Positions 5,065 to 48,558 of a stretch of DNA of 64,000 nt are shown piece by piece. The number at the start of each line of letters is the position of its first letter. The first letter of the stretch is position 1. Both the position numbers and the translations under genes were made by a program. This stretch comes from Planctomycetota bacterium (lineage in GTDB: Bacteria > Planctomycetota > UBA8108 > SXIK01). The notes under the pieces were generated by a model. That model did no database searches. It was given only the letters and a program-made list of their open reading frames with translations, and was not told the DNA's origin. The stretch is taken from positions 8,480,001 to 8,544,000 of the forward strand of contig OZ244999.1 in the NCBI GenBank assembly GCA_965223265.1, in the 5' to 3' direction.

Positions 5065-8000
5065 ATGCTTTTTGGACTCTCCGTTACCCATAGAAATCGG
5101 TTGAGAGTCCCGTCGGTGATGCTGCTCGTTACTGCCGCTGTCGTCGCGACCGACTTGGCGCGGCAATCCTTCGCTCAGACCGTCACCGAGATTCACTACC
5201 ACCCACCGGAGGGTGAGGAAGAGCTCGAGTTTATCGAGATCACGAACGAATACTCCGGACCGCAAGACCTCTCGGGTTTCGCGTTCGTCGAAGGGATTCG
5301 GTTCGTCCTACCACCGGGGACCGTGCTGCGTGGCGGTGAGTCACTCGTTGTGTGCGCCGATGCAGAGGCGGTACGCACTCGCTATGGCATCGACAATGTT
5401 GTTGGTGACTTCGAGGGCCGGTTGGACTCTGGCGGTGAGCGTGTGACTCTCGTCAATCACGTTGGCGTGGTCGTGCTGACACTGCGCTACGATGACGACG
5501 GCAAGTGGCCGCTTGCACCTGACGGCGCCGGGCACACACTCGAGCTACGCAAGATCTATCTCGACCCTTCAGAGCCGGAGAGTTGGCGACAGAGTTTCGA
5601 TCTGGGCGGCACACCTGGACGCTTTGACTCGCCCCTCCTGCGGCCAGACGTACCGCCGCCTGAGGTGCACATTGATCACGGCGATTTATGGCGCTTCGCC
5701 AAGGGGACGGCGCCGTTTTCTACGCCCACCGACGGTTGGCGGCAGATCGACTTCGACGATTCTTCCTGGCTCGTCGGTGCTTCCCCGTTCGCCGGGCCAG
5801 ACGTCGAGGTAGAACCTCTCGGAACGCTTCTCGACGATATGGTCGACAGTTATACCGGACTCGCCGTGCGGCACCGATTCTTCGTCGAAGCCGGCGAGAT
5901 CGCGTCGCATCGATTCTTCTTGGCGATCTCTTACGACGACGGATTCTGCGCCTTCCTCAACGGCGAGGAGTTTGCGCGATCGAATTGCCCGCTGGACCCG
6001 ACGTTCGAGAGTCGCGCTGCGGGCAGTCATGTTGCCGATGTTGAAGAACGCTTCTTCGTTCCACCAAGTTTGCTTCGCGGCGGCGAGAACGTCATCGCCG
6101 TGCAAGGCCTGAATGTATCCCGGCGGCAAGGTGATTTTGTTCTGGCGCCTCGACTGACCAAGGAGTCGACCTCGCCCGGTGAGACCGTCCTCGTCGATCA
6201 CGGGCATCGATGGCGATTCGCGAAGGGGACAGGCCCGTTTTCAGAGCCGAACGACGCTTGGTTGGATCCCGACTTTGATGACAGCGGCTGGTTGAGTGGA
6301 CGCTCCAGTTTCGGTTTCGGCGATGAGGAGCACGCAACGGTGCTCGACGACATGCGGGGCAACTACACGTCGATCGCACTGCGGACGAGTTTTGAATGGA
6401 CGGAGGAACTCGATCAACAGGACGGGGACCTTCTGCTCTTGGTTGACTACGACGACGGATTCTGTGCCTTCCTCAACGGCACGTTTGTCGGACGCGACGG
6501 GTGCCCCGAGGAGGTCGCGTGGAACTCTGTTGCCACGCGGGTACGGGAGGCCGGCGAGGTGACGGCGGTTCTATTGCCGCGCAAGCTTCTGCGCCTCGGA
6601 AGCAATTGGCTGTCGCTCGTCGGCGTCAATACCTCGCGCGCTGGCGATGATTTTAGCCTGACCCCGCGTCTGATGTTTCGCCGTTCCAGCTCACCTCCAA
6701 CACTGCCGGAATTCCCGGTGGTGTTCAACGAGCTGCAGCGCGGCAGCGCCGCCGACGGCGGCTGGGTTGAGCTGTACAACACTGCTTCCGAAGCCGTCGA
6801 CCTGAGCGGACTGCAGCTTGCTCGCGATCCAGACAGCACCGCACCGTTCGTGTTTGCTCCCGGTGAGAGTATCGAGGGCGGCGGCTTTCTTGTCGTGGCG
6901 GCGGCGGGCGCTGGGCTGGACTTGGGGCCGGGCGCTGAGACGGTGCAGCTATTTGTGTGGAACGAAGACGGGCTCGTCGTTGCAGCGGCGTCGTTCGACC
7001 ATGCCGCCGCGATCAATGACCCCGCCGGAGTCACGGAGGCGCTCTTTCCCGACGGCGGTGGCAGGGCGTGGGCTACCACGACGCCGACACCGGGGAGCGC
7101 GAACGAAATCGATCGCGTCGCAGACTTGGTGATTCACGAGATCTTTTATCACCCACCGCTCGAGCGGGAGGGGGAGTTCATCGAGCTGTTTCACCGCGGT
7201 TCGGTGCCGCTCGATATCTCAGGCTTTCGCTTCACGAAGGGGATCGAGTTCACTTTTCCGGGTGGTACTATCGTCGCCCCCGGTGATTTCGTCGTCATTG
7301 CGAAGCAGCCGGAGAACCTCGAGCGAACGTACAGCCTGACCGGTGTCTACGGGCCTTTCGACGGTGTCCTCGCTGACGCCGGGGAGAACGTGCGACTGGT
7401 CGATCGACTCGGGAATCTAGTTGACGAAGTGCGCTACTTCGATAGCGGTCGTTGGCCTGACCTTGCCGACGGCCGCGGTTCGAGCCTGGAGCTCGTCGAC
7501 CCACGGCAGGACAACGATCACCCTTCAGCGTGGGCGGCGAGTGATGAAACTGGGAAGGCCGAATGGGAACAGTTCACATTTGCGGCGAACGACCTCCGTG
7601 TCTCCCGTGGGCCGGACCTCAACTTGTATATGGGATCACGCGGCGTCTGTCTCGTTGACGACATCAGGCTCGTACGCCGCGGCACGACGCGAAATCTTGT
7701 CCCGAATCCAAGCTTCGAGCGTGGCGTCGAGCCATGGCGAGCTCTTGGAACGCACGTCGAGTCTGAAGTCGTCTCGGGCGATGCGCCCGCTGGGGACGCG
7801 GCACTGCGCGTCGTGGCCACCGGTAAGGGAAATCCACGCTGCAACCGCGTCGAGATCGAACTCGACGAGCGACTGGTCGACGGTAGCTTCGACGTTTCGC
7901 TCTGGGCAAAGTGGCAGAGCGGAAGCTCGCTCCTGCTTTTCGAGAGCGACTATGCCGCTGGGCCGTACCGGTCGCCGTTTGAAAACGGCGGTATGAACGC

Positions 8001-10080
8001 AAACATGTCTGCGACTCCGATCGCTGCTCGACTGCGTGTCGCGGTACCGCTCGATTTGGGTACACCCGGTGCTGAGAATTCTGTCAGTCGACAGCTCCGA
8101 CTTGCGACCGGGGAGGTTAACCTCGGTCCAATCATCCGCGATGTGCGGCATGTTCCAGTTTCGCCACTGCCGAATGCATCGGTGACTGTTTTTGCGGCGA
8201 TCTCTGATGCCGATGGGGTGGGGCGCGTCGAGGTGTTCTACCGCGATGAAGAAGAGGATCAACAGCAGGGCGATGGATTCGCTGCGGTGGCAATGGTTCC
8301 GGTGAGTGCAGCCGACGACACAGGAGCCCAGATCTATGCTGCCGAGATCCCAGCGGTTTCGTTTCCGACAACCAAGAGCTTCTATATCGAAGCGGTCGAC
8401 TCCCTCGGTAGTGTCGAACGCTTTCCCGTCGATGCGCCTGACCGTCGCTGTGTCTACCGAGTCAAAGGGTTCGATAGTGAGCGGGTGCGCGTTCTCCTGA
8501 CTGATGAGGCCGACTTCGATCTCTTCTCACGTCACATATCATCGAATCGCCGTGTCGATGCGACGTTCAGCCTCGATGACGAGCGTGTCATGTACAACGT
8601 TCAGCTGCGTTATCGCGGGAGCCCATGGGGACGAACCGTTCGCGAAGGACTCCGCGTTCGCTTCGGCGGTGATGATGCGCTGATTTTTGGGCGCAAGAAC
8701 GTCAACCTCACCATCCGCGACCGACTCGATAGTGTTGGGTACCTTCTTACGGGACACGCCGGTACGGCTGAGAAACGTGTCCTGGTTTCGAACTATCGGT
8801 TTCTTTCGGCGCGCTTTCGGGGCGCTCGCATGGGCATGGCGGGGTTGTTCGAGCCGTTCGACCGCACACTCGCGGAGGCGTGGTACGGCAAGGATGCGGC
8901 GTCGCGTGCCGTTTTCCTCAAAGGGAACGGCCGCATGCATTACGACAACGACTGCGTGTTCACGTTCTGGGACGGCGCCAGTCTTGTCTACCGCGGCGAG
9001 GAAGCGGTGGACTATCGCTTCTACTATGAGCATTCCGCGAACCAGGAGCGTGATGAATGGAGCTCGTTCGCCGATCTGACTCGGGTCATGGATCGAGAGG
9101 TTACGTCGGACGAGGAGTTCGATCGACTCGTGGACTCCGTTCTCGATGTCGAAACTTTTCTCCGCGCCGTCGGTGCGCGCGCTCTCATGGGAGGCGGCGA
9201 TGCTCTCCTCGTCCACACCGGACACAATGGTTTCATGGTGCGGGACCCGAACGACGGTCTCTGGGAGCATGCCCCGTTTGACTACGGCGGCGGTGCCGTC
9301 AACCCGACGACGGCGCTTCTCGAGATGCGCGAACCGAACGTTCAGCGACTGCTCGAGCGGACACCGATTCAAAGACGCTACTTGCAGATTCTCCACGAGT
9401 TCGTCAGCGGGTACCTCTCGAGTGATTCGCTGCGGATCTATGTCGAAGCGCTGGTCGAAGACATCGGGATCGGCGGCGACGAGCTGAGACGGTTCATCTC
9501 CGGCAGCCGAACACAGGTAGCGGAGTGGCTCGGGCAGTTCACGGCTGTGCCGCTGCGGATCCTGACGAATGACGGGGAGAATTATGTCGCGCCGTCGTCA
9601 AGCATCGACCTTGAAGGCGAGGCGCCGATCGACGTCGCGGCTCTTTTCCTACGCCGAGGTGGTGAGGCGGCGAGGCCGTTGGACATCGTCTGGCTGACGT
9701 CAACGCAGTGGCGCGCCTCGCTGCAGCTCGAGACCGGACCGAACGTCTTCGAGATCACCGGGGAAGACTCGTCCGGCGCCGTCACCGGAGCGGCGTCGAT
9801 CACGATCACACTCGGATCGGAGTCAACGTTTCGACGTGGCGACGTCAACGACGACGGCCGCTTCAACGTCTCGGACCCTTTGCGAACGATCCTCTTTCTC
9901 TTTCGAGGCCAGCCGCTTTTGTGTCTCGACGCTGCCGACGTCGATGACAACGGCGAGGTCGATCTCAGCGACGCCATCGCGGAGCTCAACTTCTTGTTCC
10001 GACGTGGAGAACCCCCTGCTGCGCCATATCCGAATGCCGGACCGGATACGAGCGCCGACACTCTCGGCTGCGTTCGCTGA
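5065..10080 (+). CDS. Secreted multidomain protein: lamin-tail domains, jelly-roll/CBM-like modules, CotH-like kinase domain, Ig-like domain, C-terminal dockerin
   Basis: Signal peptide (..SFAQ); TEIHYHP..EFIEI and HEIFYHP..EFIEL (LTD); two DDGFCAFLNG modules; LRYRGSPWGR and DALLVHTGHNGF..WEHAPFDY (CotH-like); FRRGDVNDDGRFNVSD..CLDAADVDDNGEVDLSD (dockerin). Confidence 0.85.
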   Translation: MLFGLSVTHRNRLRVPSVMLLVTAAVVATDLARQSFAQTVTEIHYHPPEGEEELEFIEITNEYSGPQDLSGFAFVEGIRFVLPPGTVLRGGESLVVCADAEAVRTRYGIDNVVGDFEGRLDSGGERVTLVNHVGVVVLTLRYDDDGKWPLAPDGAGHTLELRKIYLDPSEPESWRQSFDLGGTPGRFDSPLLRPDVPPPEVHIDHGDLWRFAKGTAPFSTPTDGWRQIDFDDSSWLVGASPFAGPDVEVEPLGTLLDDMVDSYTGLAVRHRFFVEAGEIASHRFFLAISYDDGFCAFLNGEEFARSNCPLDPTFESRAAGSHVADVEERFFVPPSLLRGGENVIAVQGLNVSRRQGDFVLAPRLTKESTSPGETVLVDHGHRWRFAKGTGPFSEPNDAWLDPDFDDSGWLSGRSSFGFGDEEHATVLDDMRGNYTSIALRTSFEWTEELDQQDGDLLLLVDYDDGFCAFLNGTFVGRDGCPEEVAWNSVATRVREAGEVTAVLLPRKLLRLGSNWLSLVGVNTSRAGDDFSLTPRLMFRRSSSPPTLPEFPVVFNELQRGSAADGGWVELYNTASEAVDLSGLQLARDPDSTAPFVFAPGESIEGGGFLVVAAAGAGLDLGPGAETVQLFVWNEDGLVVAAASFDHAAAINDPAGVTEALFPDGGGRAWATTTPTPGSANEIDRVADLVIHEIFYHPPLEREGEFIELFHRGSVPLDISGFRFTKGIEFTFPGGTIVAPGDFVVIAKQPENLERTYSLTGVYGPFDGVLADAGENVRLVDRLGNLVDEVRYFDSGRWPDLADGRGSSLELVDPRQDNDHPSAWAASDETGKAEWEQFTFAANDLRVSRGPDLNLYMGSRGVCLVDDIRLVRRGTTRNLVPNPSFERGVEPWRALGTHVESEVVSGDAPAGDAALRVVATGKGNPRCNRVEIELDERLVDGSFDVSLWAKWQSGSSLLLFESDYAAGPYRSPFENGGMNANMSATPIAARLRVAVPLDLGTPGAENSVSRQLRLATGEVNLGPIIRDVRHVPVSPLPNASVTVFAAISDADGVGRVEVFYRDEEEDQQQGDGFAAVAMVPVSAADDTGAQIYAAEIPAVSFPTTKSFYIEAVDSLGSVERFPVDAPDRRCVYRVKGFDSERVRVLLTDEADFDLFSRHISSNRRVDATFSLDDERVMYNVQLRYRGSPWGRTVREGLRVRFGGDDALIFGRKNVNLTIRDRLDSVGYLLTGHAGTAEKRVLVSNYRFLSARFRGARMGMAGLFEPFDRTLAEAWYGKDAASRAVFLKGNGRMHYDNDCVFTFWDGASLVYRGEEAVDYRFYYEHSANQERDEWSSFADLTRVMDREVTSDEEFDRLVDSVLDVETFLRAVGARALMGGGDALLVHTGHNGFMVRDPNDGLWEHAPFDYGGGAVNPTTALLEMREPNVQRLLERTPIQRRYLQILHEFVSGYLSSDSLRIYVEALVEDIGIGGDELRRFISGSRTQVAEWLGQFTAVPLRILTNDGENYVAPSSSIDLEGEAPIDVAALFLRRGGEAARPLDIVWLTSTQWRASLQLETGPNVFEITGEDSSGAVTGAASITITLGSESTFRRGDVNDDGRFNVSDPLRTILFLFRGQPLLCLDAADVDDNGEVDLSDAIAELNFLFRRGEPPAAPYPNAGPDTSADTLGCVR

Positions 10081-14591: not shown

Positions 14592-14841
14592 GCGGGAGAC
14601 TCTAACTTGCGCTGGGCGCGGACGGCGAGCGAAAACCGTCGGTCTCGGTGCAGTACGAGCGAGCGCACGAAAAAGACCGGTGGCAGGGTTGACGAAGAGC
14701 GTACAATGGAGCGTGCGGTGGCTGAGTTGGGCAGCACCGCGTCTAGTCGCACTCTCGACCCTTGGTCCGGCCGCGCTGTGCCGTGAGGGTTTGTGACGGA
14801 ATTCACCAGCTCCTAAAGTCGCACAATCCAGCGGAGGGTCT

Positions 14842-17800
14842 ATGAGGGTGGGATTGGTTCGATCTGCCGCTCGGGAGGATGACGCGTGCCCTCCGGGTTC
14901 AAGACCGTGGCGTCAATGGACGCTCCTCGGTTGCCTACTTCTCGCGGCGGCGACGTTCGCCACAGCGGACGCCGGCGACTGTAACGGCAACGGCATCGAG
15001 GATGTCGACGACATCGCCGCAGCGGTCAGCGAAGACTGCAACCTCAACGAGCTCCCCGATGAGTGTGAGACGGTGCCGCTGCCGTTTCGCGGTCAAACGA
15101 GAGTGGAAACGCCCTCCCAAGTGCACGCGATCGTCACGGCAGACTTTGACGCCGACGGCAACCAGGACATCGCGGTGGGCTATGCCAACGGATTGTCGAT
15201 CGCTCTGGACGCCGTCAATTCCGCGAGTGGTGAGATTTCGTTCCTCGACTATCGTTTCGAGGCGCGTTCGCAGGTGTGGCGCGCTGGCGACGTCGATGCC
15301 GATGGCGACATCGATTTGGTCACGGTCGGTGCGAATCGACTGCTCATTGCGCTCAACGATGGGACCGGTGGATTCGGCGAAATGCAGTCAGTCCTTTCGC
15401 CAGATCACGGCCTTCTCGAGCTTGCCGTCGGAGACGTTGACAGCGACGGCAGAGCCGACCTTGCGGTTTCGAATCGCAGTTCACCTCGGGTCTCCATCGT
15501 TTTCAGTCGTGCCGATGGAACGTTTTCCGATTTTCACCACCTTGAGGTCGGTCGCAATCCTGCGGCCGTCGAGCTGACTGATATCGACACCGACGGCGAT
15601 CTCGACCTTCTGGTCGTGAATCGCGATGACGATGAGGTCTCTCTTTTACTTGGCGACGGGCGTGGTGAGTTTGAGCCGCAGCGACGCTTCGTAGTCCCCG
15701 ACCGTCCTGAGGAAATTGCCATGGGGGATCTCAACTCAGACGGACTTGTCGACGCTGTCCTGAGGCATCGAAGCGCTGTATCCGTGCTGATGAACACCGG
15801 TAGCGGTTTCGATGCAGCACGCAGCCTCCTCTTCCCGCGTGAGTTTCCCACCTCGATTGCTGCCGGCGACGTTGATGGCGACGGTGATATAGATATCGTC
15901 GCTGGCTTTCGCAACCCGAACGGTAGCGCGGTCTTCCTCAATCGGGGCGGTGGTGAGTTTAACACAGCCGTTGCGTTCCCGATTGGACTCGAAGGCACGG
16001 CGACTTCGACGGCTTTGGCTGACATCGACGCGGACGGCGACACGGACTTTCTGCAGGGGCACGTGGCGATTCCGGCTTTGACGATCGTGACCAACTCTGA
16101 CGCCAGTCGGCTGATCGAACTTTCCTTTCCCGCAACGATTCCTGCCCAAGGGGAGCCGCACACTGCCGCGCTCGGCGACATCGATGGTGACGGCGACCTC
16201 GACTTCGTGTCAGGAAACAACAACGACGGCGACATTTCAGTACTGACGAACCCTGGTGACGGCCGGTTTGTCTTCCACTCGCAGCCTTTGACCGGCGCGA
16301 GTTATTTCTCGATGGTCTTGGCGGATATTGACCTCGACGGCGATCTCGATATCGCGTCGTCGGACACGCGCCGCGGAAGCGTCTATGCGATGAAGAACGA
16401 TGGGGGAGGAGTGTTTACGCCGTCATTTTCAGTCGAGATTGGCGGCAACCCGTTTCACCTCGGCGCAGCTGATTTTGATCTCGATGGCGACATCGATCTC
16501 GTTACGTGCGACCGTTCGCGCGGCTTTGTGACGCCGCTTTTCAATGATGGTTCCGGTACCTTTGAGCCACAACCGTTCGCTCCAGCCGGTAACGTGCCTC
16601 TGGCAGTGGCCACGGCCGATTTTGACCTAGACGGTGACGTGGACGTCGCTACGGCCAACAACGGCTCCCGAGATGTCGCGGTGCTGATGAACCATGGCGA
16701 CGGTACGTTCGAGACGCGGGTCACGTACCCGTTGGTTGCCCGACCAACTTTCGTGGTTGCAGCGGATTTCGACGGCGATGGTCACGTCGATCTGGCGACA
16801 GCAAACGAACAGAGCCAGAACGTGACGCTTTTTTGGAATCAGCGCGACGGTGGTTTCCAGCCAGGCGGAGTTTTCGGCGTTGCCTTGCCGCCGTATTCGA
16901 TGATCGCGTCAGACCTCGATGCGGACGGATTCGCTGAGCTCGTGGCCGTGAGTGAGCGCACCAGTTCGATCTCCGTCTTGGTCAACGGCGGCGATCGTTC
17001 GTTCTCTCTGTCGACCAAGCACAGGGTAGGAGGGGGCCCACGTTTCGCCGTTGCCGGCGACATCGATGCCGACGGCACCAACGATATCATCGCCGCGAAT
17101 CGCGTCGGCGAGACGCTCACGGTGTTCCACAACGCGACGCGTTCAGGACCTGAATACCTCGAATCAATGTGCACCGAGCGTGACTTCGTCACTGTTTCAG
17201 TGCCGACGGGCGAAGGGACGCGCGACGGCAAGTACGTCGTACCGGCGCGCGTCGATCCGACTCTGCTCCCACCCCTCTTTCAGAACGTGTCGCGTTTTTT
17301 GCTCCACGAGGATTTTCTGTCCAAGGCGTTTCGTGAGAGGTTCCCGACACTTGAAGGCGATATCGAGCAGTACAACCAGCTGACGGGTCGTCGCGGCAGT
17401 CGCGACTACTACGTCGGCGTGCTCAGGCGTATGCGGGAGGCCCCAAATGCGCGCTACGTGTTCACCGTCGTTGCCGACACCGGTTTTGATCCACGCGAGG
17501 TGTTGAATCTCGAGGAAGTGACGTGGGTGTACAATTCCCTGATGAGCGCGTTTGACATCGCCCCACTTGAGTACTGGCCGGACACGGAGCTGGCTCGGCG
17601 AGAGGCAGAGGCGTGGACAAACGCGCCGTTTTCGATTTTCTTCGGTGAACTCGGCGGCGGGTTTCGCTACGAGGCGTACACGACGGGCACAGGGTATGGT
17701 CGCGTGCGCCTCCTGACTCTCGAGGAGTTCGAGGCGGCGAATCAAACGGGTCTTTTCACGTTTCAGGACATCGTCGTCATCGAGCAGGCTCCGCGTGACA

Positions 17801-20289
17801 TTGAGGGGGTCGTCGGTGGTGTCATCACGGCCCAGCCGCAAGGTGCGCTCAGTCACGTCGCGATCCGAACCGCCCGGCGTGGCACGCCAAACGCTTTCGT
17901 CGCGCAGGCGCTCACGGAACTCGAAGAGCATGAAGGCGAACTCGTGCGCCTGGAAGTGTTCGATACAGAATACGCTCTTGAACCAGCTACGGTGGAGGCA
18001 GCGGAGGATTTTTGGGCGCGGAATCGCCCAACGCTTTCAGTGGCTCCGACGCTAGATCTCGACTACCGCCGTCTCGACAGCTTTGATGAGATGGACACCG
18101 TCGCGACCGACAGCTATTCGCCGGTGGCGCGCTACGGCGGCAAGGCGACGAATCTGGCTCGACTGCAAACGTTTCTGACTGGCGAGTTCGCGCCGTACGG
18201 CGAGCGGGGATTTGCCATCCCAGTTGCACACTACTTTGACTTCATGCGCTCCAACGTGATCGACATCGACGGGCGAATACTGACGTACGCCGACTATGTT
18301 TTGGAGCTTCTCATGTCGCCAGAGATCCAGTCCGATCCAGCGCGACGCTTCGAGGCGCTCCAGGAATTTCGCTCGCGGGTTCGGGAGGAAGGTGTTGTCG
18401 ATCCGGCCCTGGTGCAGGAGCTGGCCGATCGCATCACGAGTGTTTTCGGTGATGCGACGACCATGGTGCGGTTTCGATCGTCGTCAAACGTTGAAGATTC
18501 ACTCGAGTTCAATGGCGCCGGGCTTTACGAGTCAACCTCGGTATGTGCAGCAGACACACTCGATACAGAGATTCAAAACGGTTCGCACTGCGACCCGTCT
18601 CGCGACAATGCACGCACGATCGAACGTGCCCTCAAAAAAGTCTGGTCGAGCTTGTGGACATTTAGAGCCCACGAAGAGCGCTCTTTCTTTCAGATAGATC
18701 CCGCTGTCGTCGGCATGGCGATCGTCGTCAATCGCGCGTTTCTCGACGAGTCGGCAAACGGCGTCGCGTTCACGGGCAACCCGCGTTCGGCAGCGGACCG
18801 TCGCTACCTCATCACCGCCCAGGTCGGCGAGGAAAGCGTCGTCAGTCCCGAGCCTGGAGTGACGGTCGAACGCGACCTGCTCGACGTGCGCGACGGGGAG
18901 GTCGTGCGCGTCATTCGTGATCGCAGCTCGTCTCTTCTAGAGCCGGGAGAGTCTGTGGTCAGTGACGAGAAACTCATGGAGCTCGGTCGTGTTTTGGCGC
19001 ATGTCGATGCTCGCTACGAGATCGACCCCGGCGAACACGATCCACTGAACATTCTTCTCGACTTTGAGTTCAAGATCGAACGCGACGATTCGTTGGCGAT
19101 CAAACAGGTTCGACCTTTCCTGATTCCCTCGACCGGGCCTGCCACGCCAACCTTCACGCTGGAGATTCCTTCCGGGACTACGGTGTGTGGCGTGTTTTCG
19201 AAAGAGCGCCCCGGGCGGTCGCCGCGCACGGAGCTGGAGAACAAGAGCATCGTGCGCTTTCTCCCCGGAGAGTTTCTTTTGCCGACCGTGAGTGACGTGT
19301 TTTCTATGAACTGGATCGACGAAGTCGTCTTTGGTCCCGAACAGCTCGTCGGATCACCGGCCACCGACGGTGTCGTACGGATGATCCGTGTTGCCGACGC
19401 CGGGGGACAGACGATCTATCGTTTCAATTACGAGCAGACATTCGATCTGCCGACGGGCGCGCAGTTGGGTGTCCAAGTCGTCGGTGTCAGTTTCCGCGGT
19501 CGCGGCTCCGAGGCCATCGATGAGCGTCGGGTTTTGAATGAGGACTACGTGACGTTCGAACTCGTGATGCCGGCGGACCTCGACGGTATCACGAGGTTGA
19601 ACTATGGATCATGCTCGCATCGACTTCTGCCGCAGTTCGAAATCAACGTGACGACAGATGATGGTTCCAGCTTCCGCGTCTACGAGCGTTTTCTCGAGGC
19701 GCTGAGCGATTTCGACACTGGTCCTGCGAGTGTCCAGCGTGCGGAGATCACGATCGGTGCCACCCAGCAGATTGTCGATGACTATTGGCGTCTCGTTTAC
19801 GCAGCGCGGCGCCACAACCTTGACGCAACCTATTGGGTGCTGCTGGATCCTGAGATCGTCGTCGCTGGGATCGAGCAGCCTATCGCGGTCGTCCAAATCG
19901 AAGCGCCGGAGCCACCGGAGAGGCCTGATCCGGCCGTCAGTTTTCTCAGTCGCGACCTCGAGGTGATCGCGCGACCCGGCGTCACGAGTTTTGAGAAGAC
20001 CAGGGTTGTCGCAGTCGATACCTTTGTCCGCGGTGACGCCAACGTCAGCGGCGAGGTCGATATTGCCGATGCGATTGGCATTCTTCGGTATCTCTTTCGT
20101 GGTGAGACGTCGGTGACGTGCGTGAAGGCAGCTGACGCCAACGATGACGGCAAGATCAACGTGTCAGACCCCATCGCCATTGTGCTGCGACTGGTTGCAG
20201 GCCGCGCACCACTTCCCGAGCCGACTTCCTGCGGTGCAGATCCGACTCCGGACGCACTGCTTTGCGACCTGCCCGCGACGTGTCCTTGA
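14842..20289 (+). CDS. Secreted FG-GAP (14 repeats) + phospho-His + PEP/pyruvate-binding ATP-grasp + dockerin protein
   Basis: Signal peptide; DCNGNG..DECE Ca-binding repeat; 14 DxDxDGxxD repeats; ALSHVAIRTARRGTP; YGGKATNL; RFRSSSNVED..AGLYES; KKVWSSLW; ANGVAFT; DFEFK..KQVRP; FVRGDAN..ADANDDGKINVSD dockerin. Confidence 0.88.
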   Translation: MRVGLVRSAAREDDACPPGSRPWRQWTLLGCLLLAAATFATADAGDCNGNGIEDVDDIAAAVSEDCNLNELPDECETVPLPFRGQTRVETPSQVHAIVTADFDADGNQDIAVGYANGLSIALDAVNSASGEISFLDYRFEARSQVWRAGDVDADGDIDLVTVGANRLLIALNDGTGGFGEMQSVLSPDHGLLELAVGDVDSDGRADLAVSNRSSPRVSIVFSRADGTFSDFHHLEVGRNPAAVELTDIDTDGDLDLLVVNRDDDEVSLLLGDGRGEFEPQRRFVVPDRPEEIAMGDLNSDGLVDAVLRHRSAVSVLMNTGSGFDAARSLLFPREFPTSIAAGDVDGDGDIDIVAGFRNPNGSAVFLNRGGGEFNTAVAFPIGLEGTATSTALADIDADGDTDFLQGHVAIPALTIVTNSDASRLIELSFPATIPAQGEPHTAALGDIDGDGDLDFVSGNNNDGDISVLTNPGDGRFVFHSQPLTGASYFSMVLADIDLDGDLDIASSDTRRGSVYAMKNDGGGVFTPSFSVEIGGNPFHLGAADFDLDGDIDLVTCDRSRGFVTPLFNDGSGTFEPQPFAPAGNVPLAVATADFDLDGDVDVATANNGSRDVAVLMNHGDGTFETRVTYPLVARPTFVVAADFDGDGHVDLATANEQSQNVTLFWNQRDGGFQPGGVFGVALPPYSMIASDLDADGFAELVAVSERTSSISVLVNGGDRSFSLSTKHRVGGGPRFAVAGDIDADGTNDIIAANRVGETLTVFHNATRSGPEYLESMCTERDFVTVSVPTGEGTRDGKYVVPARVDPTLLPPLFQNVSRFLLHEDFLSKAFRERFPTLEGDIEQYNQLTGRRGSRDYYVGVLRRMREAPNARYVFTVVADTGFDPREVLNLEEVTWVYNSLMSAFDIAPLEYWPDTELARREAEAWTNAPFSIFFGELGGGFRYEAYTTGTGYGRVRLLTLEEFEAANQTGLFTFQDIVVIEQAPRDIEGVVGGVITAQPQGALSHVAIRTARRGTPNAFVAQALTELEEHEGELVRLEVFDTEYALEPATVEAAEDFWARNRPTLSVAPTLDLDYRRLDSFDEMDTVATDSYSPVARYGGKATNLARLQTFLTGEFAPYGERGFAIPVAHYFDFMRSNVIDIDGRILTYADYVLELLMSPEIQSDPARRFEALQEFRSRVREEGVVDPALVQELADRITSVFGDATTMVRFRSSSNVEDSLEFNGAGLYESTSVCAADTLDTEIQNGSHCDPSRDNARTIERALKKVWSSLWTFRAHEERSFFQIDPAVVGMAIVVNRAFLDESANGVAFTGNPRSAADRRYLITAQVGEESVVSPEPGVTVERDLLDVRDGEVVRVIRDRSSSLLEPGESVVSDEKLMELGRVLAHVDARYEIDPGEHDPLNILLDFEFKIERDDSLAIKQVRPFLIPSTGPATPTFTLEIPSGTTVCGVFSKERPGRSPRTELENKSIVRFLPGEFLLPTVSDVFSMNWIDEVVFGPEQLVGSPATDGVVRMIRVADAGGQTIYRFNYEQTFDLPTGAQLGVQVVGVSFRGRGSEAIDERRVLNEDYVTFELVMPADLDGITRLNYGSCSHRLLPQFEINVTTDDGSSFRVYERFLEALSDFDTGPASVQRAEITIGATQQIVDDYWRLVYAARRHNLDATYWVLLDPEIVVAGIEQPIAVVQIEAPEPPERPDPAVSFLSRDLEVIARPGVTSFEKTRVVAVDTFVRGDANVSGEVDIADAIGILRYLFRGETSVTCVKAADANDDGKINVSDPIAIVLRLVAGRAPLPEPTSCGADPTPDALLCDLPATCP

Positions 20290-21812: not shown

Positions 21813-23285
21813 ATGGGTGAGAAGGCACGCGTCCTGGGTGAGCTCGATCGCGGGCGCTACGAACCAAGATCGGTGCGCGAGGAAGTGCGCGCCAACTTGA
21901 TCTCTAAGCTGCGCGCGGGGGAGGCGCTGTTTCCGGGCATCGTCGGATTCGACGAGACAGTGATTCCACAGATCGTGAACGCCCTCTTGGCGCGTCACGA
22001 CATCATTTTTCTCGGCTTGCGCGGCCAGGCGAAGACGCGGATGGCCCGCCAGATCGTCGACCTCATGGACGAGGAAGCCCCCGTCATCGCTGGGTCGCCC
22101 CTGCGGGAGCACCCGCTGGCGCCGGTAACCGAGGTGTCCCGGCGTCTCGTTGCCGAGGCCGGCGGCGACCTGCCCATCGAATGGCTGCCTCGCGAGGAGC
22201 GCTACGGTGAGAAGCTGGCGACCCCCGATGTCACTATGGCCGACTTGATCGGTGACATCGATCCGCTCAAGGCCTCTCACCTCAAGCTTGATCTCGCTGA
22301 TCCTGCCGTGATTCATTTCGGCATCATCCCTCGGACCAACCGGGGCGTCTTCGCGATCAACGAGCTGCCGGACCTGGCTCCGCGCATTCAGGTGGGACTC
22401 CTCAATTTGCTCGAGGAGCGCGATTTTCAGATCCGTGGCTTTCCGATCCGCATCCCACTCGATGTCCTCATGGTGTTCACCGCCAACCCGGAGGACTACA
22501 CCAACCGCGGCAGTATCATCACGCCGCTCAAGGACCGGATCGCGTCGCAGATTCTCACGCACTACCCGCGCTCCGTAGCCGATTCGCGACGAATCACAGA
22601 GGCTGAGGCGTGGCTCGATCGAGGTGAGGCGTGTCCGCCAGTGGAGCTGCCTGATTTTGTTGCCGAGCTGATCGAGGAGATCGCCTTTCGTGGCCGGGAG
22701 TCGGAGTACGTCGACCAGACCTCCGGTGTCAGTGCCCGACTTTCCATTGCGGCTCGAGAGTTGCTCGTGAGCCAAGTCGAGCGCCGTTTGTTGATGCTGC
22801 CTGGAAGTGCACCGTTCCCGCGCCTCGTCGATCTCAGCCAACTCGTCCCAGCCGTCACCGGCAAGGTTGAACTGGTCTATGAGGGCGAGCAGGAAGGCGC
22901 TTTGAAAGTCGTCCGGCACCTCGTGGGAAATGCGTGTCGTGCCGTGTTTGATCGCCACTTTCCCGACATCATCAAGGAAGGCAGCGAGCCTCAGCTCAAA
23001 AGCGATCGATACAAGCCGGTGCTCGATTGGTTCGCCCAGGGAAACCAGTTGGAACTGTCGGATGGGATGTCCGACGACGAGTACGCGCAGGCCCTGAACG
23101 CCGTTCCTGGACTGTCTGCACTTGCCAAGAGTTTCCTTCCCGTCTCGAACCCTGCCGCCCACCGTGCGGTGATGGAGCTGGTGCTTGAAGGGCTGCACCA
23201 GCACTCATTACTCGCCAAAGAAGACGCGACCACGGGAGTTTCATACTCCGATATGCTCGGCATCATGCTTGAGGGTTTGAAGTGA
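21813..23285 (+). CDS. Mg-chelatase ChlI-like AAA+ ATPase
   Basis: GLRGQAKT Walker A variant, ADLIGDIDP, INELPDL, FTANPEDYTNRG. Confidence 0.88.
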   Translation: MGEKARVLGELDRGRYEPRSVREEVRANLISKLRAGEALFPGIVGFDETVIPQIVNALLARHDIIFLGLRGQAKTRMARQIVDLMDEEAPVIAGSPLREHPLAPVTEVSRRLVAEAGGDLPIEWLPREERYGEKLATPDVTMADLIGDIDPLKASHLKLDLADPAVIHFGIIPRTNRGVFAINELPDLAPRIQVGLLNLLEERDFQIRGFPIRIPLDVLMVFTANPEDYTNRGSIITPLKDRIASQILTHYPRSVADSRRITEAEAWLDRGEACPPVELPDFVAELIEEIAFRGRESEYVDQTSGVSARLSIAARELLVSQVERRLLMLPGSAPFPRLVDLSQLVPAVTGKVELVYEGEQEGALKVVRHLVGNACRAVFDRHFPDIIKEGSEPQLKSDRYKPVLDWFAQGNQLELSDGMSDDEYAQALNAVPGLSALAKSFLPVSNPAAHRAVMELVLEGLHQHSLLAKEDATTGVSYSDMLGIMLEGLK

Positions 23286-23322: not shown

Positions 23323-24414
23323 ATGAGAATCCGCTATCTCGACTGGAAGAGCGCTCGAGGTCACTTGGGCGAGCGGCTTAGGTTTCTAGAGAAGCTGTTT
23401 GCGTATTTACTCGTGCGCGAGGACGGTGACGTCGACCGCGCTCTCGAGCTGCTCGAGCATCTCGGTGAACGACACGACCTGTTCGATGACGAGCTGAGCT
23501 TTGAAGATTTCAAGAAACATCTGGAGTCTCGCAAGGTCGTGGCGCAGACCCCGACGGGGTTCTCGCTGACGCCGCGTGGTGAACGTTTCGTGCGCGCCGG
23601 TTCGCTCGCTCAGATTTTCTCGAATCTGAAGCCAGGGCGGGGTGGGCAGCATCGTACGCCCCACTCCGGGCGAGGTACCGAGCGACTTTCCGAGACACGA
23701 CCTTATCGATTCGGCGACGACCCTGAAGACATCGATTTTGTTCGTTCCTACAGAAACGCACTCGAGCGCGACGCTGCCACCGATCTGACGCTACGTGAGG
23801 AAGACCTTGAAGTGTACGAAACGGAGCGTCACGTTTCCGTCGCGACGTGTCTACTCCTCGACGTGAGTCACAGTATGATTCTTTATGGCGAAGACCGCAT
23901 CACACCCGCGAAGCGGGTCGCCCTGGCGTTGGCCGAATTGATCCTGACGCGTTTTCCGAAGGACGCGTTGCACGTGATCTTGTTTGGTGACGATGCACGT
24001 GAGATTTCGATCCGGGACCTAACGTACGCGGGTGTCGGGCCGTATCACACCAACACTCACGCCGCGCTGCGGCTCGCGCGCCGCATCTTGCAGCGAAAGA
24101 AACACGCGAACAAACAGATTTTCATGATCACCGACGGCAAGCCGTCGGCGCTGTTCGAAGGGAATGAACTCTATCTAAACTCGTTTGGCCTCGACCGCAA
24201 GATCGTCAACAAGACGCTCGACGAGGCGGCGGAGTGCCGGCGCTATGGCATTCCGATCACGACCTTCATGATCGCGAGCGACCCCTACCTGATGCAGTTT
24301 GTCGAAAATCTTACCGAGATCAACCGCGGCCGAGCGTTCTTCTCGGCGCTTGGTGATCTTGAGCACATGGTGTTCAAGGATTTCATCAACAACCGTCAGC
24401 GCCGAGTCCGTTGA
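23323..24414 (+). CDS. VWA-domain protein, partner of the upstream ATPase
   Basis: MIDAS motif DVSHSM, HTNT, MITDGKP. Confidence 0.88.
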   Translation: MRIRYLDWKSARGHLGERLRFLEKLFAYLLVREDGDVDRALELLEHLGERHDLFDDELSFEDFKKHLESRKVVAQTPTGFSLTPRGERFVRAGSLAQIFSNLKPGRGGQHRTPHSGRGTERLSETRPYRFGDDPEDIDFVRSYRNALERDAATDLTLREEDLEVYETERHVSVATCLLLDVSHSMILYGEDRITPAKRVALALAELILTRFPKDALHVILFGDDAREISIRDLTYAGVGPYHTNTHAALRLARRILQRKKHANKQIFMITDGKPSALFEGNELYLNSFGLDRKIVNKTLDEAAECRRYGIPITTFMIASDPYLMQFVENLTEINRGRAFFSALGDLEHMVFKDFINNRQRRVR

Positions 24415-30063: not shown

Positions 30064-33000
30064 TCACTCGACGTCAACGACCAGCTCGGTGGAGAAGCTA
30101 CTCTGATTGCCGACGACATCGATTGCCGTGACAGCGAAGTAGTAACGTCCAGGCGGCAAACCGCTGACGGTATACTCGCTCGTCATCCCGATGTCGATCG
30201 CTTCGGCGTAAGCACCCGATTGCGTGCCGTAGAAAAGACGAAAACCGGCGAGATCAGTGAGCGGGGTGCCGTCGGCGCTCAAGGAGGGCGGGTCCCAGTC
30301 GAGCATAATCGAGCGGTCCGGGTTGGTGCCCGCGTAGCTCACGGCTGCTTCCGCCGAGAACCGTGACTCGTTGCCACTCGAATCGACCGCTGTGACGACG
30401 TAGTAGTAGGTTGTCTCGGGCGTCACGTTCGTGTCGCCGAACGTCGACTCCTTGCTTGTGCCGACGAGGCGGTAGCCAGTACCCGCTGTGGTTGACCGGT
30501 AGATTCCGAAGAACGTCACGACGGGACTTGTGTGATCCATCCAATCGAGCACCACGCGTCCCGTGGCCTCAATGGCCGTGAGCTGACTTGGAGGCAAGAG
30601 GTCGTCAGAACGCGGGTCGTCGGACTCCGGTGACGCGATTTCGATGGCGACCTCTTTCGAGAGCGGCGATTCGACTCCGTGGAGGTTGACAGCGCTCACG
30701 GCGTAGAAGTAGGTCGTACCGACCGTGACGTTCGAGTCCAAATAGGATGTCTCTGCAGTCGTATCAATCAGCCGGAACCCGCTACCCGAGCTCAGTGATC
30801 GGTAGATGCCGTAATGATCTATGTCCGGTTCCGCATTCGGCGTCCATGCGATCTGTCCCATCGCCGACGTACTGAACGCTAGGAGCCCACCTGGCGCATC
30901 AGGCGCCGCGCCACCGGACGTCCCCGCCGGCACGGTCGCCGAGACGGACGGCGACAGCTGCGACTCGCGTCCATTTGTCCCGACCGCTGTGACGGCGTAG
31001 TAGTACGTTGCACTGGGCTCCACGTCCGCGTCGAAGTAGTCGCTCGTTCGTGTCGTCGCGATCAAGCGGAAACCTGAGGACGGCGAAGTCGAACGGTAGA
31101 CGCCGAACGATGAGATATCGCCAGTTGGCGCGTCGTGCCAATCGAGCGTGACTCCGGAGGTCGTGGGCGTCGCCGTCAATCCGGTCGGCGGTTCCGGGGT
31201 GGGGTCGAGCAGCTCAGAACTGAGGGTCGCCGAGGGTTCGGATTCCTGGCCGCCTCGGTCGATGGCGGTGACGAAGTAGTAGTACCGGGTGCCGAGTGCG
31301 ACATCTGTGTCGCGAAACCCAGCGTCGTTGACCGTGGCTATGAGGAGGAAGCCGGTGTCAGGTGACTCAGATCGGTACACCGCGTATTCCACAACGTCGG
31401 CTTCGAGACTAGCGCTCCAGTCGAGAACGATCGCGTCGCGTTCGCCCGTGACCGTGAAAGCAGCAGGGGCGACAGGCGGCGAATCTGCTGGTGTTGCCTC
31501 GATCTCGTCGGAGAAGTCGGACGCCATGCCCCAATCGTTCAGCGCCCGAACCTTGTAGAAGTACGTCGACTCGTTCTTAACGTTTGTATCGCGATACTCG
31601 CTTCGATCGATCGTGGCGATGACCTGAAACCGGTCGCCTGAGACGGTCGAGCGGTGGACTTCGTAGCCTGCAAGGTCGGTCTCCGCGTTGTCTTCCCAAT
31701 CGAGGACGACAGCGCCGTCGTGAGAGGAGGCGAACAGTCCGCTTGGGGCCGAGGGCGCCGTCGTGTCGCTGGGTTCTTCATCGACGAATTCGAACCGAGC
31801 CGCATCCGCACACGCCGTTTGTTTCTTCTGCGCGTTGATGATGACTTCTCCCTCCTCGTCGAGGCTAAAGGTGCCCAGGAGATTCCACTGCCCGCCACCA
31901 GAGCGCTGATTGATTTGGACGTTTCTCGCGCCTTCGGTGGAATTGATCGTCACAGGAACCGTTGTTGCCCTGCCAGTAAACGACGTCCACCAGAGGTAGA
32001 CGCGATAGTTTCCCGGCGTGACGCCAGGTCGATACACGTACGTTCCCGCGTCACGCGAGTACTGAGCGTCGCCGCCGTAGGGGTCGTGCCCATGCGATTG
32101 ACGCCAGCTTCCGGTCTGGCTCGTGCCTGCACCGCCGTTGTCGAGAATTACAGACTGCGGGTTGGTGAGCGCCGCGAAACCCGTCGTAGTTTCCTCGCCA
32201 CCGCGACCTCCGGAGGGGAGAAAACAGACGGCGTCTGCGCTCGTTGCGCCTGTTCCTTCCGCCACCAAAGTGACGCGAGCGTCCTCGGCGAACCAGTAGG
32301 TGCCGACGTAATTCCATATGCCGGCGCCGCGCAGTTGGTTGACGCTGAAGCTTGTGGATCCATCAACGTGGTCGATGATGACGGGAACCGAGCCGGAGCG
32401 CCCGGGGAAATGTGACCAACGGAGAAACGTGTCGTACGGCGTCTGTGGCACCAGTGTCGCGGCGAAGGTCAGACGACCGCTGGTCGTGGCGAACAGGGAG
32501 TTCGGACCGTAGGCGCCGAGCCCCTGTGAGCGCCTCCACTCACCGCTGGTGACGACGTCGGATTGGGAGTTGTCGACGACGAGAGAGTCTTCCGCAGTCG
32601 TCTTCGATGCCGCCGCGACCTGACTGTCTATCTCCGCAGCGAAGAGTTCCATCGACGCCGCCGGATCGCTTGGCACGACGTCGACGATCCACGAAAACGA
32701 CATGGTCCTCGCACCGGCTTCGATTTCCTGCGCTTCTTCGTCGATCGTCGTGACGTTCTGGCGGCGATGGTCGACGACTGAAATGGTGACGGAGTGTGTG
32801 CCGACGTCGCTGGCGCTGGGTCTATAGGCGAACTCGGTTGAGTTAGAGTGACCTACGGCCGTGCCGTTCAGCCTCCATCGGTATTCGACGTCGCCTCCGT
32901 CGCCCAGCGTCCCTTGGGCGCGAAGCACGAGTTCGTCGCCGGCGCGGACGCGCGGATTGACCAACGGCCGCACTCTCTGCAGGAGCGGAGATGCTATCCC

Positions 33001-33813
33001 GTCGGAGTCTTCGAGCACGTGTACGAACCACGAATAGCTCAGCGACCGCTCAGTCATGGACTCTCCGGAGGCGCCGGCTTCCGAAAGGACTTGCCCGATG
33101 CTGTCGTCGCTCCGACCTAGCAGCTGCTCAAGTGCTGTCGATCGACGCTCGAGCACTTCGACGTCGATCGTGTGGACTCCGAGTCCGAGCGAGCCGCTTT
33201 CGACGACCAGCTCTGGTCCTGCTGCGTCCATTTCGACACCGTCGATCCACCAGCGGTACTCCAGTTCGTCGCCTGCGTCACCGTCAATGGCGAGCGCGGT
33301 CACGGCGAACTCCCCGCCGGGGGTTACGGTGAAATCGGACAGTGGACCCAAAGACTCCAATTGCGGTGGACGATTCAGCGCCAGCGGCGCCGAAGCTCCC
33401 CCGTTTTCCTCGGCGTCAAGGACGTTGACCTGCCAGAGCACCGAGAGCCTCGAGGTTTCGTCTGCTGTGCTCAGCCTGGCCTCGACTTCGTGCGCTCCGA
33501 CTCCGGTCGTCAGAGTGTCGAAAGCGAAACTGAAGGCGTCCGACTCTGTCAGGGCGCCATCGACGAACCAGTCGATCTCGACGGCCTCCGAGTCATCCGA
33601 GTTTTGCGCTACCACCGCGAACTCTGCGATCGCGCCGAGGAATGTCGTCGACCTCGACGCTGCAGGAGTCGTCGACTCGAGCAGAACGCGCTGACGTTGA
33701 GGTGGAGCGGACCCGCTGCCTGATCCACCACCACCACCACCGCAACTGAGAGAGGCAATCGAAAGGGTGAACAGGGGAACGAACTTTTGGCGCAGATGTC
33801 GAAGAGAGAACAA
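30064..33813 (-). CDS. Surface lipoprotein with Ig-like, two golvesin/Xly-CBD-like and about six fibronectin-III domains
   Basis: SLS|CGGGGGG lipobox; repeated LDW..D..Y.VYRS..YYY.VTA..ES..S units; ADAVCF/ADAARF modules. TTG start chosen after AAGGAG (ORF track extends to 33987). Confidence 0.85.
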   Translation of the reverse strand: MFSLRHLRQKFVPLFTLSIASLSCGGGGGGSGSGSAPPQRQRVLLESTTPAASRSTTFLGAIAEFAVVAQNSDDSEAVEIDWFVDGALTESDAFSFAFDTLTTGVGAHEVEARLSTADETSRLSVLWQVNVLDAEENGGASAPLALNRPPQLESLGPLSDFTVTPGGEFAVTALAIDGDAGDELEYRWWIDGVEMDAAGPELVVESGSLGLGVHTIDVEVLERRSTALEQLLGRSDDSIGQVLSEAGASGESMTERSLSYSWFVHVLEDSDGIASPLLQRVRPLVNPRVRAGDELVLRAQGTLGDGGDVEYRWRLNGTAVGHSNSTEFAYRPSASDVGTHSVTISVVDHRRQNVTTIDEEAQEIEAGARTMSFSWIVDVVPSDPAASMELFAAEIDSQVAAASKTTAEDSLVVDNSQSDVVTSGEWRRSQGLGAYGPNSLFATTSGRLTFAATLVPQTPYDTFLRWSHFPGRSGSVPVIIDHVDGSTSFSVNQLRGAGIWNYVGTYWFAEDARVTLVAEGTGATSADAVCFLPSGGRGGEETTTGFAALTNPQSVILDNGGAGTSQTGSWRQSHGHDPYGGDAQYSRDAGTYVYRPGVTPGNYRVYLWWTSFTGRATTVPVTINSTEGARNVQINQRSGGGQWNLLGTFSLDEEGEVIINAQKKQTACADAARFEFVDEEPSDTTAPSAPSGLFASSHDGAVVLDWEDNAETDLAGYEVHRSTVSGDRFQVIATIDRSEYRDTNVKNESTYFYKVRALNDWGMASDFSDEIEATPADSPPVAPAAFTVTGERDAIVLDWSASLEADVVEYAVYRSESPDTGFLLIATVNDAGFRDTDVALGTRYYYFVTAIDRGGQESEPSATLSSELLDPTPEPPTGLTATPTTSGVTLDWHDAPTGDISSFGVYRSTSPSSGFRLIATTRTSDYFDADVEPSATYYYAVTAVGTNGRESQLSPSVSATVPAGTSGGAAPDAPGGLLAFSTSAMGQIAWTPNAEPDIDHYGIYRSLSSGSGFRLIDTTAETSYLDSNVTVGTTYFYAVSAVNLHGVESPLSKEVAIEIASPESDDPRSDDLLPPSQLTAIEATGRVVLDWMDHTSPVVTFFGIYRSTTAGTGYRLVGTSKESTFGDTNVTPETTYYYVVTAVDSSGNESRFSAEAAVSYAGTNPDRSIMLDWDPPSLSADGTPLTDLAGFRLFYGTQSGAYAEAIDIGMTSEYTVSGLPPGRYYFAVTAIDVVGNQSSFSTELVVDVE

Positions 33814-48211: not shown

Positions 48212-48558
48212 CGGGCGATCCTTGAGCTTTGAGGTGCTTCGTGTAGCGCTAGTCGACGTCAGCACGGACAGGCCATCCGGGTCCGCGGCATTTTACCGTG
48301 GGGAATTCATGAAAGCCTACCATCAGCGCGCTTTAGGATCGCGCGAGGTCGCGCTTCAGTGTCGGCTGGTCCTTCCGACCGCCGGTCGCGTCTTCGATCG
48401 TGGAAGCGTTGGGTCAGGACGGCTGCCACACGGATCCACAGTAACAATTCGTACTCTTCTGCGTCAGGGAACATGTCGACCAGCCTGGTTGCGACTGGCT
48501 GGAAAAGCAGCACGTGCTCAATTATCCTGTGAGCGGTTTGCTTTCTGCAGGTTGCCGA

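Follow-up and report, generated by a model that had tools for sequence, protein, structure and literature searches.

What could a histidine-dependent dikinase do outside the cell, a place not expected to contain ATP? The question is raised by a gene at 14842-20289 on the forward strand of a 64,000-nt stretch of DNA, hereafter called the window, which covers positions 8480001-8544000 of a single-contig Planctomycetota genome (9,179,496 bp, 91.65% complete according to markers). The gene is the sole long open frame at that place and encodes 1815 amino acids (aa). Its product is a member of the swivelling-His dikinase superfamily, for the PPDK_N domain, the nucleotide motifs and a His domain of the carrier fold are all present, and its further features suggest that phosphorylation takes place outside the cell. 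With a probability of about 0.5, we read it as an exported His-dependent phosphotransferase that has the domain order of glucan, water dikinase (GWD) and is aimed at an extracellular polymer. The features of the gene, all on the forward strand, are as follows.

14833-14838 (+): Shine-Dalgarno-like GGAGGG, 3 nt upstream of the ATG, read from the sequence
14842-20289 (+): entire gene, 1815 aa plus stop, from the listing of open reading frames (ORFs)
14842-14973 (+): probable Sec leader, aa 1-42/44, with hydrophobic core W26-A42 and an ATA or ADA site, from the sequence
14977-15069 (+): DCNxNGxxD...DCNxNxxPDxCE module, aa 46-76, from near-invariant columns in the alignment of 33 paralogues
15094-16116 (+): FG-GAP repeats 1-7, aa ~85-425, putative propeller 1, from Pfam and calcium loops, with the boundary inferred
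16117-17151 (+): FG-GAP repeats 8-14, aa ~426-770, putative propeller 2, on the same evidence and with the boundary likewise inferred
17164-17736 (+): family-specific alpha/beta domain, aa 775-965, from structure models and invariant residues
17746-18048 (+): swivelling phospho-histidine domain, aa ~969-1069, from Foldseek and a weak GWD1_pHisD match
17854-17856 (+): codon of His1005, the predicted phospho-acceptor, from motif position and invariance
18121-19128 (+): PPDK_N-type ATP-grasp, aa ~1094-1429, from Pfam, Foldseek, hhalign and invariant motifs
19141-20013 (+): family-specific all-beta domain, aa ~1434-1724, from the secondary structure of the model and invariant residues
20020-20193 (+): dockerin type I module, aa 1727-1784, from Pfam and sequence matches to the PDB
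20194-20286 (+): Cys-rich C-terminal tail, aa 1785-1815, with conserved C and P columns and low pLDDT

Two structure models were used. The first was built with AlphaFold2 for aa 775-1815 from an alignment of 48 rows (mean pLDDT 86.5), and it predicts the order alpha/beta domain, His domain, ATP-grasp, all-beta domain and dockerin; the second covers aa 775-1084 (pLDDT 90.6). A preliminary description of the locus had listed a signal peptide, 14 FG-GAP repeats, a phospho-His motif followed by an ATP-grasp, and a terminal dockerin. Each listed item is present, and as an observation that description is confirmed as a whole. What it overlooked are two family-specific domains (aa 775-965 and 1434-1724), together with a family of 35 paralogues in the same genome.

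The catalytic domains

How firmly can the catalytic part be assigned? The Pfam model PPDK_N matches aa 1098-1426 with 64.6 bits (cut-off 27), and it was found in 16/16 core relatives tested with Pfam. The ATP-grasp motifs already quoted in the preliminary description (GGKATNL, RSSSNVED..AGLYES, KVWSSLW, EFK..QVRP) are all there and invariant in the relatives. The domain retains the full set of nucleotide/Mg motifs: GGK, RxRSSSNxED, DxExK and KQxRP are unchanged in 48/48 aligned relatives, and the invariant residues are R1097, G1099, G1100 and K1101 in the N-terminal part, R1210, R1212, S1213-S1215, N1216, E1218 and D1219 in the middle, and D1407, E1409, K1411, K1421, Q1422 and R1424 in the C-terminal part. 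The roles in binding nucleotide and Mg given to these motifs are those known for the corresponding residues of PPDK. When aligned by hhalign with the genome's own PpsA, aa 1094-1441 pairs with PpsA residues 23-364 (E 1.1e-4) and the motifs are matched up. Both the alignment and hhalign also reveal an insert in the ATP-grasp, bounded by the invariant C1235 and C1250, which cytoplasmic PpsA does not have.

The His domain is a phosphoryl-carrier fold. The PEP-utilizers model PF00391 matches none of the 16 core relatives and has no match in the window protein at E <= 0.1, and GWD1_pHisD matches aa 986-1043 with 15.5 bits, below its cut-off of 27, with weak matches in 12 of the 16 core relatives (best E 6.3e-4). 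Despite the missing PF00391 match the domain is confirmed by its fold, because in a Foldseek search aa 775-1084 matches the His domain of rifampin phosphotransferase (RPH; 5hv2, 120 columns, 23% identity, 6.5e-5, prob 1.00) and the phosphoryl-carrier domain of PPDK (2fm4, TMt 0.48, prob 1.00). The same search found another RPH structure, 5fbt, at prob 1.00, and the further matches of the search are dikinases or other swivelling beta/beta/alpha domains, for example MccF (4mjx, 7.2e-4). The predicted phospho-acceptor had been placed at codon 17854, and a script indeed puts the His of LSHVAIRTARRGTP there, as aa 1005. It is invariant in 33/33 paralogues, in 48/48 aligned relatives and in 39/39 sequences across phyla. 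The last figure comes from a cross-phylum alignment of 39 rows, ten of them short homologues of ~700-820 aa, in which the pattern T..Q..LSH...R...RGTPN is unchanged in all 39 sequences, including homologues labelled Myxococcota, Omnitrophota and proteobacteria. Within the domain T996, Q1000, L1003, H1005, R1009, R1013, T1015 and P1016 are invariant in 48/48. The residues of both the His domain and the ATP-grasp are thus conserved in homologues.

The modelled core as a whole gives the same picture. Its best PDB matches with Foldseek are RPH (5hv1, 4.4e-15), PpsA (2ols, 4.3e-10), HpeI (9goj, 1.0e-9) and PPDK (1kbl, 9.6e-6), and outside the dikinase family this search of the whole core gave no PDB match below E 1e-3. 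Is there a pyruvate domain? No PEP-utilizers_C, the pyruvate TIM barrel, was found by Pfam in the window protein at E <= 0.1, and the domain after the ATP-grasp is all-beta according to the model, in line with the preliminary description, in which no such barrel was recognisable.

Export, propellers and dockerin

Where does the enzyme act? The hydrophobic stretch W26-A42 ends in A-T-A shortly ahead of D46-C-N and would be the signal peptide that had been proposed. All 35 paralogues have the same layout, that is, a hydrophobic 12-mer (Kyte-Doolittle mean >1.6) just ahead of the DCN motif, usually ending in A-x-A. A leader was also recognized in 16/16 distant homologue ORFs inspected by eye, several of them with a lipobox Cys. 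Further Cys are invariant at positions 1449 and 1591 and in the C-terminal tail. Taken together, the predicted leader, the calcium-loop propellers, the dockerin, the invariant Cys and the leaders of homologues support export to the periplasm or the cell surface.

The DCNxNGxxD...DCNxNxxPDxCE module has no Pfam match. It stands directly behind the leader in all 33 long paralogues, where it is near-invariant, and it resembles two calcium loops stapled together by Cys.

Of the two regions between this module and the catalytic part, the first seven repeats have calcium loops at aa 101, 150, 198, 247, 296, 343 and 394, and the last seven at aa 446, 495, 544, 593, 642, 691 and 740. These 14 loops were found with the regular expression D.[DN].[DN]G..[DE] over aa 101-740, at a spacing of 47-52 aa, and together with the Pfam matches (FG-GAP_3 in 12 stretches, E 9.7e-77; FG-GAP, 2.8e-24) they bear out the 14 repeats described before. 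This count suggests two putative 7-blade propellers. What might they bind? The propeller profile of the family matches PVL (2bwm, 8.7e-17), a 7-blade lectin for GlcNAc/sialic acid, but also secreted esterases, CRTAC1, integrins and the Tc-toxin subunits TcB/YenB (5.7e-9), so that a glycan ligand is plausible and not more than that.

At the other end of the protein, Dockerin_1 matches aa 1731-1776 with 26.1 bits over a cut-off of 22.9 (Pfam), and the module matches the PDB dockerins 1daq (2.6e-4) and 2mte (3.4e-4) by sequence, so the dockerin noted earlier stands. Docking on a cell-surface scaffold, proposed along with it, is unsupported: of 481 dockerin candidates in the genome 150 were scored, and they gave at least 109 Dockerin_1 matches, compared with 3 cohesin matches above the threshold (32.1, 29.0 and 28.6 bits) and 1 below it. 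For the same reason the dockerin seems to be a tag that exported proteins of this organism carry in general. A 646-aa frame near genome positions 9018854-9019504, which bears a cohesin, holds a dockerin too.

Two family-specific domains

If the propellers only bring the enzyme to its target, where would the acceptor be bound? Two domains particular to the family seem more likely than the propellers to form the acceptor site. The first is the alpha/beta domain ahead of the His domain. Most of it is modelled at pLDDT >85; H822 and R854 are invariant across phyla in the 39-row alignment, R851, E886 and E892 in 48/48 relatives, and the domain is retained in homologues without propellers. Foldseek searches with both models gave no domain-specific PDB match. 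ESM Atlas gave leads below 0.9 only, one at 0.84 being a Myxococcota hypothetical protein and one at 0.80 a Chlorophyta cluster, 65% of which carries GWD1_pHisD. The second is the all-beta domain behind the ATP-grasp, with C1449, C1591, H1658 and N1659 invariant in the 48-row alignment. It had no match in Pfam, in the PDB (Foldseek) or in ESM Atlas, and homologues of ~700-820 aa in other phyla lack it. Since neither domain has a structural relative, an acceptor-site role for them is a guess; both are candidates for a new acceptor-binding fold.

Paralogues and genome context

The genome has 38 PPDK_N matches, of which one belongs to PpsA, two to one frame of PPDK, and 35 to members of the family. 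Of these 35 paralogues, 33 are full-length (1794-1902 aa) and two are propeller-less (1070 and 1075 aa), and together they cover 181,326 nt, or 1.98% of the genome. Pairwise identity ranges from 36.4 to 74.0% with a median of 41.5% (528 pairs) and is highest within tandem clusters; the nearest paralogue of the window copy is 47.7% identical. Are these copies under selection? All 33 long frames are open, and in the alignment of the 33 paralogues the mean column identity is 0.6-0.78 in the catalytic part versus 0.39-0.50 in the propellers. This speaks for selection on the paralogues, with the catalytic part better conserved than the propellers. One full-length paralogue (genome positions 2538867-2544467) starts 14 nt past the stop of the canonical ppsA (2536409-2538853) on the same strand, a position that may have arisen by chance or may reflect how the family originated.

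The window gene itself stands alone, with divergent Fe-ADH and E1 dehydrogenase genes upstream and an SDR gene downstream. A scan for promoters and terminators gave no signal above shuffled sequence. Near the paralogues, the clusters of neighbouring genes that were scanned comprise LTD/CotH, CARDB, sulfatase, MR_MLE, DUF1501, PSD1/PSCyt2 and PQQ_2. There are 53 CotH loci in the genome, many with Lamin Tail Domain (LTD), CHB_HEX_C_1, Fn3_assoc and dockerin modules. Of the 35 paralogues, 9 have a CotH gene within 10 kb, compared with 4.8 expected (133/2000 shuffles reach this count), and 16 have one within 20 kb, compared with 8.1 expected (24/2000 shuffles), and tandem copies are not independent in either count. 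The co-location of CotH and dikinase genes is thus weak. A CotH kinase domain also occurs in the window, in a 1671-aa protein with three LTDs at 5065-10080 (+).

Some other genes of the window may be mentioned. Downstream of the SDR gene, 21813-23285 and 23323-24414 (+) encode an adjacent AAA_5-type ATPase and a VWA protein, resembling MoxR/VWA pairs. At 30064-33987 (-) there is a 1307-aa protein, probably on the surface, with two Golvesin_C, an fn3 and several Ig-like domains, and at 48514-52854 (+) a 1446-aa ORF that has a weak Ion_trans match (E 2e-4, below cut-off) and matches no other family.

Distribution and other architectures

How widely is the family distributed? With aa 780-1450 as query, 311 database proteins were found in a length band of 998-3177 aa, named 'FG-GAP-like repeat-containing', 'VCBS repeat-containing', 'PEP/pyruvate-binding domain-containing' or hypothetical. 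A pattern search of species-representative genomes gave 162 matches, and 146 of them encode relatives. Most are labelled Planctomycetota; other labels are Verrucomicrobia (three), Omnitrophota (five), Parcubacteria (two), Nannocystis/Polyangia/Myxococcales (six) and Enterobacterales or proteobacterium (four), where the labels of metagenome-assembled genomes (MAGs) may be wrong. In a sample of the phylum, 10/201 genomes match at E <= 1e-30, and the full-length matches are confined to the order of the window genome. In that order PPDK_N is found in 21/21 genomes, with 5-18 matches each against the 38 here, counts which include the canonical enzymes.

What is the minimal unit of the family? Homologues of ~700-820 aa span the upstream alpha/beta domain, the His domain and the ATP-grasp and nothing else, so these three are taken as the minimal unit. 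The upstream domain alone found 313 clusters among 1.84 billion representatives, 229 of them at 1e-10 and 56 at 1e-30. Ten relatives with other layouts were looked at; eight keep PPDK_N, and two end soon past the upstream domain. Their accessory modules are CHB_HEX_C_1 with Fn3_assoc and a beta-helix (3), LTD (3), Laminin_G_3 (2), fn3 (2), and in single cases BNR_2 with a dockerin, Lcl_C, and FG-GAP. All are extracellular and mostly glycan-associated types, and LTD, the beta-helix with CHB_HEX_C_1 and Fn3_assoc, Laminin_G_3, BNR_2 or Lcl_C take the place of the propellers, which would fit modular targeting. Several genomes of the same class or phylum also encode ~750-820-aa proteins that match the His domain and ATP-grasp only (profile positions ~150-686); these may be a sister family sharing the domain order. 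In our literature search no paper on the family was found, supplementary lists aside. Both its architecture and its predicted location set the family apart within the swivelling-His dikinases, and the literature searched holds no characterisation of it.

Proposed mechanism and alternative explanations

The preliminary description had interpreted the protein as an extracellular dikinase acting on a non-pyruvate substrate. This interpretation is partly supported: probable export, the domain order, the conserved His and ATP-site residues and the missing pyruvate domain speak for it; the scaffold docking that it included is unsupported. The scenario we favour is the following. The ATP-grasp would bind a nucleoside triphosphate and, in the manner of PpsA, GWD and RPH, His1005 would take the beta-phosphate, with AMP released and the gamma-phosphate passed to water. 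The His domain would then pivot to an acceptor site in the alpha/beta domain (aa 775-965), perhaps completed by the all-beta domain (aa 1434-1724), where a hydroxyl group of the acceptor would be phosphorylated. The two variable FG-GAP propellers would direct the enzyme to its target, a polymer or surface outside the cell and most likely a glycan, and the dockerin-like tag would keep it near the cell. If so, the 33 full-length paralogues might share one chemistry and differ in targeting.

Several points weigh against this scenario. No ATP source outside the cytoplasm is known, and none was found here. Export has been judged from sequence features, the acceptor site is placed by a guess in the N- and C-terminal family domains, and the hhalign probability of the match to PpsA is 57%. 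For FG-GAP propellers, protein ligands are as common as glycans. When the ORFs within 8 kb of the 35 paralogues were compared all against all, no specific partner emerged among the clusters scanned, the neighbours being only families very abundant in the genome. The genome also has no match to a TLC-type nucleotide carrier, which says little because the control genomes gave none either.

Could the enzyme use the ATP of other cells? As a contact-dependent or secreted weapon, or a detoxifier, it might act in cells that are lysing or into which it has been delivered, and phosphorylate molecules of prey or competitors such as an envelope polymer, a metabolite or, like RPH, an antibiotic. The best structural match to RPH (4.4e-15) and the match of the FG-GAP profile to the TcB/YenB propellers of Tc toxins (5.7e-9) would fit this, as would relatives labelled Myxococcota, Omnitrophota and Parcubacteria, groups with known predatory or epibiotic lifestyles (described in part in bioRxiv 10.1101/2023.11.21.568195). 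However, the RPH match is limited to the ATP-grasp and His domains, the rifampin-binding domain being absent, and the MAG labels are possibly unreliable. Moreover, polymorphic weapons usually vary at the catalytic end, which here is the conserved part, and the genes next to the paralogues show no recurrent delivery system, immunity gene or toxin-like gene. We consider such a role unlikely.

Another way around the missing ATP is that none is spent outside the cell. The enzyme might run in reverse or transfer phosphate between phospho-compounds, through its His and from an extracellular phospho-donor, so as to scavenge phosphate, or it might only bind nucleotide as a sensor or adhesin. The reactions of dikinases, PPDK among them, are reversible, and sulfatase/phosphodiesterase-type genes occur in the flank of the window and in the neighbourhoods of paralogues. 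Nevertheless, no phosphatase-like or transporter partner recurs, ATP made outside the cell would have no obvious use, and the invariance of the Mg/nucleotide and His motifs over large distances fits turnover better than binding. This explanation, too, seems improbable. Last, the protein might nevertheless be cytoplasmic, with a wrong start or a leader that does not function, and would then be an intracellular dikinase of the ordinary kind that carries odd appendages. This can practically be dismissed: the leader is called on sequence and the n-region of the window copy is long (25 aa) with acidic residues, but there is no in-frame ATG, GTG or TTG from codon 5 to the hydrophobic stretch, leaders recur throughout the paralogues and in distant homologues, the calcium-loop propellers, dockerin and invariant Cys pairs are extracytoplasmic features, and the accessory domains of relatives are all of extracellular types.

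What would follow if an exported phosphotransferase is the right explanation? Swivelling-His dikinases are known as cytoplasmic or plastid enzymes, and a conserved exported family of them would show this chemistry outside the cytoplasm for the first time; the origin of the phosphoryl donor would become a testable question. A more specific version, which we regard as tentative and rather doubtful, is that these Planctomycetota phosphorylate extracellular polymers with nucleotide energy: the exported family would do in bacteria what GWD does to starch, and loosen or tag insoluble glycans ahead of their hydrolysis, with each of the 33 paralogues aimed at a different target by its propellers. In that case, and with the 53 exported-looking CotH kinases considered as well, this lineage would have ATP or another phospho-donor at its disposal outside the cytoplasmic membrane. 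If the acceptor is a glycan, phosphorylation would join the known microbial attacks on recalcitrant polysaccharides.

Comparison with known systems

Which of the known phosphotransferases does the family resemble most? The CotH kinases are similar in being a second large, apparently exported family of ATP-using phosphotransferases in the same genome, and their LTD, CHB_HEX_C_1, Fn3_assoc and dockerin modules are also used by relatives of the dikinase core elsewhere. They differ in their unrelated, protein-kinase-like fold and in having no His intermediate. PpsA and PPDK, of which the genome has one canonical copy each, have the same ATP-grasp motifs and the same His carrier fold, whereas the window family is apparently exported, has no PEP/pyruvate TIM barrel and shows the reverse order of His domain and ATP-grasp. 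Identity with PpsA or PPDK was rejected; the NCBIfam models of PpsA score 34.3 and 28.6 bits where 598 and 739.75 are required, and like the PigC/RedH model of NCBIfam they touch part of the ATP-grasp only and stay far below the cut-off.

RPH of Listeria monocytogenes (5hv1/5hv2/5fbt) is the best structural match, both for the ATP-grasp (4.4e-15) and for the His domain (6.5e-5), and it too has an acceptor other than pyruvate. It is a cytoplasmic enzyme, in contrast, and its order is ATP-grasp, rifampin-binding domain and His domain. Identity with RPH was rejected as well, since the NCBIfam score is 28.2 bits against 999 and covers aa 1260-1356 only, the order is reversed, and no match to the rifampin-binding domain was found.

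GWD and phosphoglucan, water dikinase (PWD; EC 2.7.9.4 / 2.7.9.5), enzymes of plants and algae, come nearest in layout. PMC13553574 gives the order of StGWD1 as CBM45, CBM45, central domain, His domain and ATP-binding domain, with a His domain that pivots, an ATP domain closer to RPH than to PPDK, and a central domain of 444 aa that is all-alpha with 20 helices. The window protein likewise has targeting modules, an acceptor-side domain, a His domain and then PPDK_N, its ATP-grasp is compact and RPH-like as described there for StGWD1, its His lies in an L-S-H context, and there is no pyruvate domain. The GWD-like order of the preliminary description, with His1005 ahead of PPDK_N at aa 1098-1426, is therefore borne out, and among characterised dikinases the His-before-ATP-grasp order is known only from GWD/PWD (order as in PMC13553574). 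There are differences, too. The window protein has FG-GAP propellers in place of CBM45/CBM20 or any other carbohydrate-binding module (CBM; Pfam), and its upstream domain is a ~190-aa alpha/beta domain rather than the 444-aa all-alpha domain of the published description (PMC13553574).

The window family has in addition an all-beta domain, propellers, a dockerin and a leader, and GWD acts where ATP is at hand, in plastids or the cytosol. Membership in GWD/PWD was rejected on the grounds that CBM45/CBM20 and the all-alpha central domain are absent; the GWD1_pHisD match is a weak one, with 15.5 bits against a cut-off of 27. Thus the family is GWD-like in layout but not a member of GWD/PWD, because it has no CBMs and its upstream domain is of the ~190-aa alpha/beta type, and it is probably GWD-like in mechanism. 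If this holds, GWD and PWD, whose origin is unclear, would gain bacterial relatives of the same domain order.

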